DNA of 64,000 bases, taken from an uncultured delta proteobacterium (lineage in GTDB: Bacteria; Desulfobacterota; Binatia; UBA9968). A program made the position numbers and the translations under genes. Shown piece after piece: positions 5,084 through 51,392 of this stretch (positions are counted from its first letter, which is position 1; every line of letters begins with the position of its first letter). The notes under the pieces are model-generated. The model worked only from the letters and a program-made list of their open reading frames with translations, ran no database searches and was not told the DNA's origin. The stretch covers positions 608,001 to 672,000 of the forward strand of contig CAVYTU010000015.1 of NCBI GenBank assembly GCA_963771465.1, written 5' to 3'.

Positions 5084-5116
5084 TGGTGGAGGCAACGGGA
5101 CAGTGTAAAGATCTCC
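5084..5116. mobile_element. Left attachment site of the island: core TGGTGGAG plus arm ACAGTGTAAAGATCTCC
   Basis: The core 5084-5091 equals the tRNA-Ala 3' end at 51343-51350. The arm 5100-5116 is a 16/17 inverted match to 51320-51336. Confidence 0.8.
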
Positions 5117-5721
5117 TCGCGGGAATCCCATAGCCTTTACGATTTCCTGTACGTACATCTCTGTCTTTGGGAAATGCTGCCATGCAAGAAGGGAAATATT
5201 TCTCCCTTGCGTCAAGCGCCCATGGGTCGACCCCGAACTATAGATCGATGCTGCAAGATCGATTTCATCCAAAATCTTCTGACCTTCTGGGCCGGCTTCA
5301 AACTATTTGTCCCCTATTTAAGGTGTCCGTCAAACCGGGGCTAACTCACCTTAAACGCGGTGTAGAATTTGCATTAAAAGAGAACAGTTATAACCCATGG
5401 ACACATTGGACACATTGCATTTGTCTTTACCCCGCGTCGCGCACATGCTAATCATTTGTTTTCGCAAACGGAGAAGGAAGGTACCGGGAAAGTTTGACTT
5501 CCTCCTCTCCGCCAGGAAGAAATTCCCATAGACTTTTACGTCCACATCAAAGCGATGTTAAATGGCGATCAACAAGTAGCTGGGCGTTGACATTCTACCT
5601 GCTGACATTAAGAAGTTTATTTGCCGTGAAAAATCTAATCGCAGAAACCCGAGCTGCCTACTACTGTGTTTTTCCGGTACCATAAAAAAGTTGAGTCGAC
5701 GCGAAGAGGCGGACGATTGCC

Positions 5722-7338
5722 ATGAACCGCAGTCATTTTGATTCACAGGCAGCGGATCTCAGCGCAAAAAATGAAGCCCAGCCGTTCCACAGTAATCTTC
5801 ATTTTCAGGAAGTACTTGCAACCCTGGGCTACGGCATAATCGCTCGTAAAGGTCTCATCCTTCTCATCGGCGATGCGGGCACCGGCAAAAGCGCGCTGCT
5901 GCATCAACTCACGCGCGAGCTGGATAGCAACGTCACCTACATCTTTGAGTCTGAGCCCGAGGTGAATTTTACGGATTTGCTTCGACTTGTTCTCAGTCAT
6001 CTGGAAGGCGCCGGCGATACCCGGGGCGGACTTTCGATGATGCAACGCTGCAAAGCCATTTTGCGCTCCCAACTGGACCAAGGTCATATCATTTGTTTGA
6101 TCATCGACAACGCGCAACGTCTGCGCGATGAGACCCTTGAATACGTACTACACAATTTCTTTAGCGCCATCTCAGCCGCTGGTGATGAAAATCTGTTGCA
6201 AATTGTCCTGGCGGGGCGACCTGAGCTAGGGGAACGACTCGCCCAGCCGCGCCTGCGCTCGCTTAAACCTTGCTCCGACCTAGTGTGTCAACTTCAACCG
6301 TTGCGGGACAAGGACGTCGCCGCCTACGTCGAGCATCGGCTTCGCGCTAGCAACCTGGCCGTCGATATATTCGGTGGCGCGGCAATCCAACAAATCGCTG
6401 CTTATACCGGCGGCAATCCACAGAAGGTCAATGTCCTTTGTGATTGTGCGCTGCAAGCTACCGACAGATCGCACTGCGAAGTTACCCCCGAGATGATCAC
6501 CCGCGCCGCGCGAGAGCTCGATCTTTCTGAGGCCCGGCCTCCGCCCAGCGATAGGGTGGCGCCCAGGTTTGAAATACCCAGCGAACGCGACGAACCTTCC
6601 CGCTTTCAATTGGTCGATGGCGACGTGAACGAAATGGTCAGACAAACGTTTCTGAACTGCACCGTCGACGCCCGCAGGCCATGGCTTTGGCCGTCGGGTC
6701 GAAATCGAATGGCGGTTCGAATCTTGGTGCTTCTCATCCTTCTCGGCGGCGCCGCTGCATGGTTGCAAAGTGAGACAGGAAAAAGCCAACTGGCAGCCTG
6801 GACCGGGAGGCAAAGCGGGAACGAAGGTTCAAAACAAGGATTACCGGCCGACGCCAACGCACCGCTAGTCGCGAAGCAAGACATCCCCGCCTCACCCACC
6901 ACGCCAGCTCCATCAACTCGGCCGGTGCCCAAAAGCGCAGTTCCTTCATCGCCAATGAGCGATTCTGGGACCAGGAGCCTTCCCCTTCCCAACAACGAAA
7001 AATCCGCCGACCTGCCGTCTCCGGTGCCAACGGAGAAAGCTGCAGAAAACTCCTCGACAGCAAAACCCGCGCCGAGAAAGGCTCCTGCGCCACCGATTAA
7101 CGACCGCTGGCCGGCGGCGGAGAATCGCGCCGTCCAAAGACAAATTCTCGCGGCGCAAGTTTCCCGAGCGATCGGGAATCGCGCCATCGTCGGTGTCGAC
7201 GTTTCCATGACCAATGGCACCGCCGTCCTCAAAGGCCGGGTGGCCACGGAACGGCAGAAAACTGCCGCTGAACAAGCCGCTCGCAGCGTTGCGGGAGTAA
7301 AGCGAGTGCGCAACCGCATTGCGGTTTCTGGAAGCTAG
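5722..7338 (+). CDS. ExeA/GspA-like AAA ATPase with TM helix, Pro-rich linker and C-terminal BON domain
   Basis: Walker A GDAGTGKS, Walker B LIIDNAQ, LQIVLAGRPEL, YTGGNP..VNVLCD. TM ILVLLILLGGAAAW. BON-like GTAVLKGRV...AEQAARSVAGVKRVRNRI. Confidence 0.82.
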   Translation: MNRSHFDSQAADLSAKNEAQPFHSNLHFQEVLATLGYGIIARKGLILLIGDAGTGKSALLHQLTRELDSNVTYIFESEPEVNFTDLLRLVLSHLEGAGDTRGGLSMMQRCKAILRSQLDQGHIICLIIDNAQRLRDETLEYVLHNFFSAISAAGDENLLQIVLAGRPELGERLAQPRLRSLKPCSDLVCQLQPLRDKDVAAYVEHRLRASNLAVDIFGGAAIQQIAAYTGGNPQKVNVLCDCALQATDRSHCEVTPEMITRAARELDLSEARPPPSDRVAPRFEIPSERDEPSRFQLVDGDVNEMVRQTFLNCTVDARRPWLWPSGRNRMAVRILVLLILLGGAAAWLQSETGKSQLAAWTGRQSGNEGSKQGLPADANAPLVAKQDIPASPTTPAPSTRPVPKSAVPSSPMSDSGTRSLPLPNNEKSADLPSPVPTEKAAENSSTAKPAPRKAPAPPINDRWPAAENRAVQRQILAAQVSRAIGNRAIVGVDVSMTNGTAVLKGRVATERQKTAAEQAARSVAGVKRVRNRIAVSGS

Positions 7339-49507: not shown

Positions 49508-50475
49508 TGCTCACAAAAGAACTTTCAAAATTGCCAGCGCTGCGTCCCGCGTTCATCGAACCAATGTACGCCCAAGCGGTTAGCGAGCTGCCGGAGGGCA
49601 ACCTTTGGAGCTATGAAGCAAAGCTCGATGGTTACCGCTGTCTCGCCGCTAAGCACTCTGGCGGTGTTGTGCTCTGGTCGCGTCGGGGCAACCGATTCAC
49701 AACCCGGTTTCCTGCTATCGCCAGAGCGTGCGCGAAGCTCCCGGCAGACACGCTAATCGACGGCGAAGTGGTGGCGGTCGACGACAACGGGCGGGCTTCT
49801 TTCAATGCATTGCAGCACAGCCGTTCCTCTCTCGTTCAGTGCTACTACGCCTTCGACATATTGACTTATCGCGGCCGCAACACCCTTCGGTTACCGCTGA
49901 AAACTAGACGGGAGCTTTTAGCCGAGGCACTGGCTAAAGTCGAATATCCTGTGCTTCGCTGTCCTGCCTTTACTGCCAAGCCCGCGGACTTCGTCCGTGC
50001 AGCAAAGGAATTACAGCTCGAGGGTATCATCGCTAAACGCAAAGACTCACTTTACGAATCTGGCCGACGCAACGGCGCTTGGTTGAAATACCAGATTAAC
50101 CGCTCGCAGAAGTTCGTTATCGGCGGCTATACGCCCGGTAACCCATTCGATGCGCTTATCGTCGGATGCTACGACGGCGCCGACCTGAACTTTGTGGCTA
50201 AAATCCGCAATGGATTTGTGCCGCACATTCGCCGCGAAGTTTTCAAGAGTTTGCGCTCCCTGCAATCTGACCGTTGTCCATTCGCCAATCTGCCGGAGAA
50301 GCGGCGCACGATGTGGGCGCTATCTGCCAGTGAAATGAAAGAATGCCGTTGGCTGAAGCCTGAGCTTGTGGCCCACATTGAGTTTACGGAATGGACACCG
50401 GACGGGCACTTGAGGCACGCTAGTTTTGCCGGTTTGCGTGACGATAAAGAGGCGCGACAGATTGTGCGGGAATAG
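49507..50475 (+). CDS. ATP-dependent DNA ligase (LigD ligase domain / LigC-like)
   Basis: YEAKLDGYR (motif I), IDGEVV, YAFDIL, EGIIAKR, WLKY, EFTEWT.DG.LRH..F.GLRDDK. No polymerase or phosphoesterase domain. Confidence 0.92.
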   Translation: MLTKELSKLPALRPAFIEPMYAQAVSELPEGNLWSYEAKLDGYRCLAAKHSGGVVLWSRRGNRFTTRFPAIARACAKLPADTLIDGEVVAVDDNGRASFNALQHSRSSLVQCYYAFDILTYRGRNTLRLPLKTRRELLAEALAKVEYPVLRCPAFTAKPADFVRAAKELQLEGIIAKRKDSLYESGRRNGAWLKYQINRSQKFVIGGYTPGNPFDALIVGCYDGADLNFVAKIRNGFVPHIRREVFKSLRSLQSDRCPFANLPEKRRTMWALSASEMKECRWLKPELVAHIEFTEWTPDGHLRHASFAGLRDDKEARQIVRE

Positions 50476-50756
50476 CCTAGCCCACGGCGTTATCGTTATC
50501 GGCAAAAGCAAGCGGCTCACAGTAGAACAGCGATAATGGCTATGATGAGCCAGCGAATTGCTTGGGGGAATCGTATTGCAGACCTACAGAGTCTTCCGAT
50601 CGAACAACCACCCCCCCGGCGTAAGTCGCACCGAAAGCCAGGACGAAGTTCTAACGGTTCCTAACGGTGCGGTTGGGCTCTATTAGTCCCTCTGTCGGAA
50701 AATAGTCTGTCCGGTTTCCAAGTTGTATCCCCAAAGTAACAATCTCCGACGGGACG

Positions 50757-51392
50757 TTGCCAGGCGATAAGCTAATACGCATAAGAACTTCCCCTCTGCC
50801 GGCGGGAACGTCAGTTGTCCTAGAACAGATCCAAGAGCAAATCCTAAGCGAAGAAAATATTCATAAATATATTAGCTTGGTCCTAGAACAGACTAGTCAA
50901 CAACCCAAGACCGAGCCAAGCGCCGATGAAACGGCCGTAGAATAGGCGCTACGGGACATTGATACGAAGCTCAATCGCTGGGAAAAGACACTGGAAGGTG
51001 GGCTTCTCTCTCTTGAAGATTGCGCGGCCCGCATTAAAGAGCTTCGTCAGCAGCGGGAAGCCCTTCTCGAGCGCAAGGTCGAATTGCACAGGAAAGCTCG
51101 CGTGGGAGCTAAAATATTACCGATTCCAACTCGCTTAATGAACGAGTATGTCCGACAAATGCAGATGCGGCTGCGACAGAAAAATATCGGCTTCAAGAAG
51201 GAATTTATCAGAGAAATTTTGAAGGAAGTGAGAGTAAAAGGTAATGCGGTTCGATTGACTTACAAGCTGCCCATGACAGTGAGAACTCCACCGTCCAAAA
51301 GCGGAAACCCTCGGACGGGGGAGTTCTTTACACTGTATCAGATGGTGGAGCTGATGGGAGTCGAACCCACGGCCTCTAGAGTGCGATTCTAG
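50757..51392 (+). pseudogene. C-terminal remnant of a large serine recombinase (coiled-coil/C-terminal part), in-frame TAG at 50943-50945
   Basis: ORFs 50757-50945 and 51084-51392 share a frame: VVLEQIQEQIL..ALRDIDTKLNRW..EGGLLS..RIKELRQQRE..KKEFIREILKEVRV....RLTYKLP. It abuts the att/tRNA site. No catalytic domain is present. Confidence 0.7.
51320..51350. mobile_element. Right attachment site: arm GGAGTTCTTTACACTGT plus core TGGTGGAG
   Basis: Mirrors 5084-5116. The core overlaps the tRNA CCA end. Confidence 0.8.

Follow-up and report, generated by a model that had tools for sequence, protein, structure and literature searches.

In passages of PMC5704250 the 3' ends of tRNA genes are given as the targets of tyrosine recombinases and intragenic sites as those of site-specific serine recombinases, and parts of a preprint on tycheposons report a minority of large serine recombinases (LSRs) among tRNA-associated elements, so that serine recombinases aimed at tRNA genes are not without precedent; a limited literature search returned no description of serine recombinases aimed at the CCA ends of tRNA genes. 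The current work concerns such a case in the genome (here G000) of an uncultured delta proteobacterium. The stretch analysed, referred to as the window, comprises 64,000 nt of assembly GCA_963771465.1 (contig CAVYTU010000015.1, positions 608,001 to 672,000 of the forward strand) and lies on contig C15 of a genome of 6.9 Mb, present as 19 contigs with 6.3% estimated contamination. An interpretation made from its letters alone (the sequence-only reading) had proposed that the 46 kb between positions 5084 and 51350 represent one mobile element, brought into a tRNA-Ala gene by an LSR together with a whole Wzx/Wzy-dependent polysaccharide locus. According to the account favoured here, to which we attach a probability of roughly 0.58, the two ends are att relics of an LSR element which is now dead, the interval between them is composite, and the recombinase element was not the vehicle of the polysaccharide locus.

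With the large serine integrases of A118, TP901-1, Bxb1 and phiC31, the recombinase family described below shares the arrangement of Resolvase, Recombinase, zinc-ribbon and C-terminal coiled-coil parts in its intact members, sequence similarity to the A118 (4kis, E 1e-9) and TP901-1 (3bvp) integrase chains, being the nearest solved structures, and an attP of approximately 56 bp with inverted arms and very short identity with attB. It differs from these in that insertion takes place at the CCA end of tRNA or tmRNA genes and not within a protein-coding gene, in that attP overlaps the last codons of the recombinase, and in having two tandem recombinases and a third conserved copy of the arm. The presence of two adjacent LSR genes and the insertion at the 3' end of a conserved gene which is left intact resemble SCCmec with its CcrA/CcrB recombinases, as do the large variable cargo and the frequency of decayed or composite remnants at the hotspot; SCCmec belongs to another host phylum, and its target is rlmH/orfX as opposed to a tRNA gene here. 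Paired serine recombinases aimed at the CCA ends of tRNA or tmRNA genes are moderately novel; serine-recombinase islands as such are known.

When the window sequence was re-read, all letters on which the sequence-only reading relied were located at the positions it had given. The core TGGTGGAG is present at 5084-5091 and at 51343-51350, the second copy being the complement of the tRNA CCA end, and is by itself weak evidence, with 5 copies in the window versus 1.16 expected. The arm ACAGTGTAAAGATCTCC, when up to three mismatches were allowed, produced two matches in the window versus 0.10 expected, a number that was reached in none of 100 shuffles; these are an exact match at 5100-5116 and a match with one mismatch on the minus strand at 51320-51336. 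With at most one mismatch the arm occurs at three sites in the whole 6.9-Mb genome, namely at both window ends and at C14:1152802, the latter adjoining a second tRNA-Ala gene, tRNA-Ala(GGC). The two window halves fit a layout of P arm, 6 nt, core, 8 nt and P' arm, and the 6+8+8 spacing and the GG centre that had been calculated for the joined ends are arithmetically correct. The proposed 16/17 inverted arm pair is correct in its letters, but only 12 of the 17 left-arm bases belong to an att site because the last five (TCTCC) form the start of a 195-bp gene fragment (see below), and the 16/17 match is in part due to chance.

The right end is a true attR accompanied by a recombinase stub. The attR (51320-51350, plus strand) consists of the P arm GGAGTTCTTTACACTGT (51320-51336), the spacer ATCAGA (51337-51342) and the core TGGTGGAG (51343-51350), and the target of integration is an intact tRNA-Ala(CGC) gene on the minus strand (51343-51418; ARAGORN; Rfam RF00005, 66.8 bits), which is the sole tRNA in the window. 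The right-flank homology of all nine relatives' loci stops at 51342-51343. The stub (50757-51392, plus strand) represents the C-terminal part of an LSR, has an in-frame stop (TAG, 50943-50945), and extends across the P arm into the tRNA gene. It corresponds to approximately residues 362-553 of an intact 571-aa protein of G019 (L077:441-2156), to which it is 71% identical over 148 aa (residues 406-553, E 7e-73), and nothing else of this protein was found in the window by tblastn. At the nucleotide level the stub is 92.6% identical to a paralog at C14:1152798-1153321, whose 353-aa open reading frame (ORF) contains PF07508 Recombinase (E 1.3e-17) and PF13408 Zn_ribbon_recom (E 1.2e-13).

A Pfam scan of the window stub itself detected no domain, PF00239, PF07508 and PF13408 all being absent, and tblastn found neither LSR_B nor an N-terminal LSR_A part in the window. 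The catalytic and DNA-binding domains are all missing from the window recombinase, and no intact copy is present genome-wide in G000, in which PF00239 matches are confined to C14 (one with 4 stops, the others being short open frames of 148 and 175 aa). Since the stub lacks the LSR domains which the C14 paralog and the intact relatives keep, it is to be regarded as a remnant of an LSR family member and not as a member. The translation, the tblastn result, the domain-bearing C14 paralog and the identity to the G019 protein bear out the earlier assignment of 50757-51392 to the serine recombinases, and the element is dead. A third copy of the arm motif, ACAGTGAGAACTCC (51276-51289, plus strand), is located 30 nt upstream of the P arm and inverted with respect to it; the corresponding block of columns is nearly invariant across 13 aligned loci, and this copy may serve as an accessory binding site, form a hairpin or result from a coding constraint.

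The same arrangement was retrieved from related genomes in a survey of 90 genomes of the family, in which a homologue was accepted at E<=1e-20. Recombinase homologues were found in 15 of these genomes at 19 places, 15 of which hold a tRNA or tmRNA gene (Ala-CGC, Ala-GGC, Lys, Val, Met or tmRNA). Intact tandem pairs are present at G019:C17 (571 and 721 aa) and G060:C2 (558 and 743 aa), where the tRNA-proximal recombinase (558-571 aa) contains Resolvase, Recombinase and Zn_ribbon_recom domains and the preceding LSR (721-743 aa) contains Resolvase and Recombinase domains; intact LSR relatives next to tRNA-Ala with the same arm, for which the sequence-only reading had advised to search, thus do exist. 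The arm-spacer-core-tRNA geometry of the window attR is repeated in 13 loci of related genomes, the alignment of which is 98% conserved in the 17-nt P arm and 96% in the core, as compared to 78-82% in the upstream coding sequence and 79% in the 6-nt spacer. The motif GCNNNGGGACAGTGTAAAGA, allowing one mismatch, gave 13 matches in 8 of the 90 family genomes (2 of the 13 belonging to the unpublished G005) versus 1 control match. The attL layout of core, 8 nt and arm was seen in G019 (twice), G060 (twice), G067, G046, G081 and G006, and a natural contiguous attP at G046:C120, with the order P arm, ATCAAA, TGGTGGAG, CCGATGGG and P' arm, agrees with the attP that had been reconstructed from the window ends; attP-like sites are also present in G019:C13 and G006:C192. 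These conserved arms and natural attP, attL and attR sites uphold the claim that the window ends have the att anatomy of an LSR element.

Large islands of this family exist, as had been supposed: in G060:C2 an island of 69.3 kb is contained on one contig between attL (1208834-1208861) and attR (1278159-1278190). Its recombinases are intact, its cargo includes nuclease, defence-type, transposase and pyruvate:ferredoxin oxidoreductase (PFOR) genes, and no polysaccharide genes were found in it. A search for the corresponding empty site in the congeners G058 and G059 (the latter unpublished) retrieved only paralogous matches. In G019:C25 both ends of a 5.6-kb remnant are preserved at tRNA-Val with the repeat TGGTGGT, and the B side at G019:C25:190452 consists of the ancestral terminator and a C12-like block (see below). 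The repeat common to both ends measures 8 bp in the window and is only TGGAG in G060, G067 and G081; an end repeat of 5-8 bp (TGGAG to TGGTGGAG) fits the 2-bp crossover of a serine-type recombinase, for which the GG at the centre of the dyad would be the candidate dinucleotide. Comparison of the B sides of the attL sites revealed no conserved sequence, so that recognition probably rests mainly on the tRNA half-site. When a wider set of genomes was scanned with the intact recombinase, 4 loci were obtained, from metagenome-assembled genomes (MAGs) of uncultured Deltaproteobacteria/Syntrophobacteraceae and one Verrucomicrobia MAG, a number too small for statistics.

At the left end of the interval the att site is a mere scrap. 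The last gene of the left flank which is syntenic with the closest relatives encodes a solute-binding protein (3680-4828, plus strand; Pfam SBP_bac). The left flank is 89% identical in nucleotide sequence to G024:C126 and 78-80% identical to G009:C1, and these alignments end at window positions 4843 and 4830, respectively, diverging just after the stop codon at 4828 and running on into other genes. A degenerate spacer follows (4829-5083), being the B side of the left att relic, in which no similarity to the relatives' tRNA-Ala(CGC) downstream flank was detected. It includes two scraps shared with C11 or copied from it, namely 4966-5016 and 5020-5066, which are 88% and 96% identical to G000:C11:5244-5194 and 4997-4952, respectively; the distance between them is 196 nt in C11 and 3 nt in the window. 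The attL scrap itself is 28 nt long (5084-5111, plus strand) and consists of the core TGGTGGAG (5084-5091), the spacer GCAACGGG (5092-5099) and the start of the P' arm, ACAGTGTAAAGA (5100-5111). In all 11 of 11 other attL or attP sites the arm ACAGTGTAAAGA is followed by ACC, in place of which the window has TCTCC, and a conserved interior, ACC..TGTG.TACC.TTTCGTT, follows the P' arm in G060, G067, G046 and G000:C12. This conserved element interior is absent from the window, its place being taken by a 3' fragment of a solute-binding-protein gene (5112-5306, minus strand; 195 bp, approximately 64 codons) which is broken at both ends and 93% identical to G000:C13:254826-255018, the C13 counterpart being a gene for a 372-aa SBP_bac protein. 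The region 4829-5355 is a chain of scraps, the att part of which is 5084-5111. A different derivation of 4966-5306, as a shrunken paralog of C11:5244-3041 enclosing the att scrap, was rejected, the gene fragment being 93% like C13 and only 64-68% like C11; the C11 segment X, when searched for in the genus, was found only in G000.

The left junction was also retrieved from independent soil metagenomes, Logan contigs of which span it with 0-1 differences (X1 covering 4403-5141 and a piece of X3 covering 4941-5120), while the X3 pieces tile 3868-5728 across it. Among the contig pieces listed, no loose end is located at 5083-5091; this layout is made of contigs only, with 172 pieces and 76 loose ends, and its uncovered parts carry no meaning. 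Since it is reproduced in independent metagenomes, the left junction is not an assembly artefact, and its arrangement seems to be fixed in the population. For the stretch 4600-5700, half or more of the sampled words were present in 20 public runs of 11 studies, for the most part metagenomes of soil and rhizosphere; at least the arrangement at the left junction, if not the organism as such, is widespread.

The identity of the DNA originally adjoining the target tRNA was determined by comparing the DNA beyond the tRNA 3' end in 13 congeners (14 loci). At 12 of the 14 loci, representing 11 of the 13 congeners, this DNA matches G000:C12:67174-88500, the differing genomes being G003 and G019, and in G015, G006 and G013 a terminator hairpin stands between the tRNA and the promoter of the C12-type block. 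Next to this block, at G000:C12:66641-66672 (minus strand), an attL is present with the sequence TGGTGGAC GCGGCGGC ACAGCACAAAGA, followed by conserved element interior and with a B side that shows homology to the DNA downstream of tRNA-Ala(CGC) in G009 (approximately 25/31 nt, counted by hand). This is an attL formed when an element entered tRNA-Ala(CGC), positioned next to the ancestral neighbour of that tRNA. The outer side of the window attL is not that neighbour, the role being filled by the C12-type block in those 11 congeners. With the cognate attL located on C12 beside the ancestral neighbour, at least one rearrangement has re-partnered the window ends. On the inner side of the C12 attL, after approximately 40 nt, genes are encountered with 86% identical counterparts in G009 and G024; when the fate of this interior side was followed in G009, G024, G007, G015 and G019, only scattered matches were obtained and no synteny was readable. 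The empty site joining position 5083 to the tRNA, which the sequence-only reading had predicted, was not found in the 13 congeners, in a search limited by the fragmentation of the closest relatives G009 and G024, whose left-flank contigs end after 2.6 and 5.8 kb.

The second tRNA-Ala gene of G000 is the site of a composite island, observed as C14:1152718-1160597 and C11:1-7878 (L038 and L037). The tRNA-Ala(GGC) gene is intact and is followed by the same P arm and by a pseudogenised tandem recombinase module of approximately 4 kb which runs off the end of C14, and C11:7832-7878 is a 47-nt copy of the 3' part of tRNA-Ala(GGC), after which the ancestral flank begins. Because of this partial tRNA and flank on C11, the end of C14 and the start of C11 probably adjoin, although no overlap was detected when the C12 start, the C14 end and the C11 start were compared by shared repeats. 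The site thus probably holds a tyrosine-type island, with a 47-bp repeat, in tandem with a serine-type island. The segment C11:4952-5244, which is matched by the window scraps 4966-5066, lies inside this composite island. Just upstream of the partial tRNA, a repeat of approximately 145 nt (C11:7708-7850) is present with 82-92% identity in many genomes of the genus, its copies often being located within 1.5-3 kb of tRNA-Ala(GGC). A comparable situation was observed at G019:C17:20498-20544 (L077), where a 47-nt partial tRNA-Ala(CGC), 100% identical to the 3' part of the window tRNA, abuts the P arm of the intact recombinase pair, with the whole tRNA of G019 on a different contig; a serine-type island followed by a later tyrosine-type island in the same tRNA is the likely history of this locus. 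With tyrosine-integrase tRNA islands (the classical islands and the tycheposons), the present system has in common the tRNA 3' end as hotspot, the tandem and decayed islands and the 47-nt partial tRNA copy at C11:7832-7878. Unlike in such islands, the repeat measures 5-8 bp and not 30-50 bp, PF00589 is absent from the window, and the remnant at the tRNA belongs to the serine family.

The polysaccharide locus, a Wzx/Wzy-dependent exopolysaccharide locus of 31 kb (5355-36240, with genes at 5722-36191), is unique within G000. It is collinear with loci in G012, G064, G015, G006, G018 and G068 and, as regards its left end, in G021, at 64-88% nucleotide identity, the homology with G021 beginning at approximately 5355; the unpublished G005 carries the locus as well and was left out of this comparison with seven congeners. 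When ARAGORN was applied to 16 stretches around the congeners' loci, 0 tRNAs were found, and no att arm beside a core was present at these loci. The attL motif had 0 matches in each congener genome with the locus except G006 (two, on other contigs), and recombinase homologues, at the threshold of the family survey, were absent from the seven locus-bearing congeners except for a broken fragment on another contig in G015. The genes upstream of the locus in G012 and G021 are those for a sigma-54 response regulator, a histidine kinase, USP and HSP20.

As judged by Pfam, the claim of a complete Wzx/Wzy-dependent locus is justified, with Wzx, Wzy, the initiating transferase and the Wza/Wzc pair all present. 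The order is as follows: an AAA_22/BON ATPase (5722-7338, plus strand), two pectate-lyase-like genes (8463-9962, plus strand; 10646-11725, minus strand), AsnB (13994-15979), Wzy (18043-19497; PF14296 and PF01901, just above the cut-off), a GT2 glycosyltransferase (22923-23954), Wzx (23958-25385; PF01943), a GT4 glycosyltransferase split into ORFs of 98 and 297 aa (27131-28337), a UDP-glucose dehydrogenase split between a short N-terminal ORF and the remaining 330 aa (28445-29922), a WecA-like transferase (29777-31555; PF00953), an epimerase (31669-32739), Wzc (32736-35045; Wzz, GNVR and P-loop) and Wza (35073-36191; PF02563 and SLBB), and the locus also holds methyltransferases and six GT1/GT4 genes. 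The split GT4 and UDP-glucose dehydrogenase genes, which represent either decay or sequencing errors, render the present-day function of the locus uncertain. A 35-nt inverted repeat (28393-28427 and 31582-31616; 89% complementary), rich in TTGAACGG and possibly regulatory, brackets the UDP-glucose dehydrogenase and WecA-like genes. The present locus resembles horizontally switching Wzx/Wzy capsule and exopolysaccharide loci in that Wza, Wzc, a WecA-like transferase and an epimerase flank a variable centre of lower GC content with the glycosyltransferases, Wzx and Wzy, and in its patchy distribution in the genus and mosaic similarity; it is unlike them in that the locus stands in chromosomal contexts in seven congeners, for example next to the sigma-54 response regulator and histidine kinase genes of G012.

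The remainder of the interval is of a different composition. A stretch of low GC content (0.456; 36241-39200), including a gene for a LysR-family regulator (37363-38271, minus strand), has no counterpart in the congeners or elsewhere in G000. It is followed by a mosaic of multi-copy mobile-element fragments (39200-50500), pieces of which are 75-98% identical to sequences on C17, C9, C2, C3, C13 and C19. By Pfam the mosaic contains a pyrophosphatase-like ORF (39907-40470), SRAP (40446-41126), a helix-turn-helix (HTH)/DUF1804 ORF (45937-46392), SNase (48269-48832) and an ATP-dependent DNA ligase (49507-50475), and it is partially duplicated internally, 41050-41308 matching 49248-49507. A mobile-element family with SRAP, ATP-dependent DNA ligase and small genes is represented in the window at 40448-43183, 45053-47215 and 49248-50475, and elsewhere in G000 at C17:1151458-1156573, C9:151100-156492, C2:5462-14254 and C3:1615-3952. 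Several copies of the mosaic family adjoin tyrosine-integrase genes (C17:949528, C9:157366, C3:3361-3952 and C17:1164164); the 15 PF00589 hits in G000 all lie outside C15 and hence outside the window, and no second copy of the 3' 30 nt of the tRNA was found in the window with up to 7 mismatches. The segment 46573-47215 (approximately 650 bp) has two further copies of 92% identity (C15:1047918 and C13:439807), and most genomes of the genus contain matches to it of 70-85%.

The att anatomy, the recombinase family and its decay, the breaks of synteny and the distribution of the polysaccharide locus are shown by the comparisons above; from these we infer the crossover position, the order of events and that the LSR element did not bring the polysaccharide locus. 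Islands of this type are moved by a tandem LSR pair and integrate at the CCA end of tRNA or tmRNA genes, using an attP composed of P arm, 6 nt, core, 8 nt and P' arm which overlaps the last codons of the tRNA-proximal recombinase gene. The left end of the window interval is a 28-nt attL scrap with breakpoints on both of its sides, and the 46 kb are a composite of the 31-kb polysaccharide locus, a 3-kb orphan stretch, an 11-kb graveyard of a different mobile-element family and the recombinase stub. The polysaccharide locus, shared and horizontally exchanged within the genus and located elsewhere in ordinary chromosomal contexts, would not have been brought by the recombinase element. There is hardly any doubt about the att relics and the recombinase family as such. 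For the remainder of this account, several observations weigh in the opposite direction. The well-preserved attL scrap is correctly oriented with regard to an attR 46 kb away, the chance of a stray relic being so placed in 6.9 Mb amounting to approximately 0.4% by our own estimate, so that some historical link between the ends is probable, and linked ends would mean that everything between them was once inside one element or a hybrid of two. Islands of the family carry large, chromosome-like cargo, as seen from the PFOR gene in G060. Neither of the two closest relatives, G009 and G024, has the polysaccharide locus, and its left part (5452-11424) is 83-88% identical to G021:C52 and G012:C210, whose neighbouring genes are only approximately 70-74% identical to G000, from which it follows that by one route or another the locus is mobile between genomes; the contrast in identity is an indication that segments of it were exchanged horizontally between members of the genus. 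Furthermore, the left boundary common with G021 (approximately 5355) is situated only some 250 bp inward of the att scrap, the surroundings of the locus vary from congener to congener, so that no single ancestral chromosomal position is established, and the attL on C12 could derive from an older insertion. A history of tandem islands, a swap between two islands, or a solo relic are all possible sources of the window attL.

Arrival of the polysaccharide locus as cargo of an LSR element, by whichever route, is the less likely reading, with a chance of about one in four or slightly more. In the form closest to the sequence-only reading, which we consider unlikely, a single 46-kb LSR island carried the whole locus into tRNA-Ala(CGC) and later lost its recombinases and the inner edge of the left arm; the B side of the window attL would then be what is left of a previous island at this tRNA, and the C12 attL the relic of a still older insertion. 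The geometry of core, spacer and arm is right for this at both ends, their orientation and distance are as expected, an intact 69-kb island of the same family is present in G060, the match of the B-side scraps 4966-5066 to the composite island at tRNA-Ala(GGC) makes an island-plus-island tandem plausible, and the locus is patchy in the genus with signs of horizontal exchange. However, the ancestral neighbour of the tRNA is on C12 with an attL of its own, no empty site joining 5083 to the tRNA was found in the 13 congeners, the conserved interior next to P' has been replaced by a fragment of a chromosomal-type gene, seven congeners hold the locus with neither att site nor tRNA nor recombinase nearby, and the G060 island is without polysaccharide genes. 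The attR sites of serine recombinases are not normal substrates for a second integration, which also counts against a single island. Arrival or exchange of the 46 kb as a single element together with the polysaccharide locus is not supported, in view of the ancestral flank on C12, the missing empty site, the att-free loci of the seven congeners and the dead recombinase. Of the findings which the sequence-only reading had itself named as contrary to it, the carriage of the locus by relatives without att repeats and the lack of an empty-site allele apply in part, and the homologues of the stub are, as it had supposed, serine recombinases.

Still less probable is an exchange of partners, in which islands at tRNA-Ala(CGC) and at tRNA-Ala(GGC) or another site recombined homologously between inverted copies, the polysaccharide locus being the cargo of one parent. 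Such an exchange would account for the two attR in G000 with 92.6% identical stubs (the window and C14:1152798-1153321) and the two attL (the window and C12), and for the location of cognate att partners on different contigs, and the first 22 nt of the window B side show a weak likeness (approximately 15/22) to the tRNA-Ala(GGC) downstream flank of G015. Against it, the genes on the inner side of the C12 attL are 86% identical in G009 and G024, which are genomes without the element, so that the DNA there does not stem from the element; between the window interior and the C14 island nothing beyond the recombinase stub was found to be shared; and the congeners show no link between the polysaccharide locus and the LSR family. 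Finally, a fortuitous resemblance at the left end, a tRNA island of a tyrosine integrase, or a chimeric assembly are largely refuted and would be surprising. The core is common (5 window copies), the last 5 arm bases are fortuitous, and an assembly of 19 contigs with 6.3% contamination would leave room for a chimera, but the 20-nt motif of spacer and arm is exact at 5092-5111 and otherwise confined to att sites of the family (13 versus 1 in the control), the window has neither a PF00589 hit nor a second copy of the tRNA 3' part, and independent metagenome contigs reproduce the left junction.

The choice of target is unusual, tRNA 3' ends being regarded as the territory of tyrosine integrases, and since the B side appears to be almost free of sequence requirements, recombinases of this type could be of interest for the mining of integrases for genome engineering. 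Mapping of islands by means of long tRNA repeats would miss a repeat of 5-8 bp; conversely, matching att relics 46 kb apart are no proof that the interval between them moved as a unit. A bolder synthesis, which we regard as doubtful, is that of a clade of paired LSRs using the near-universal CCA end (Ala, Val, Lys, Met and tmRNA) as attB, with a core of approximately 5-8 bp, an attP in their own last codons and islands of up to about 70 kb, of which one island, or a hybrid of two, would here once have enclosed the whole Wzx/Wzy locus. If this were true, the surface-polysaccharide type of the organism would be a cassette open to exchange by a serine recombinase at a tRNA gene; the polysaccharide locus is better explained as a locus of the genus which is exchanged by other routes.

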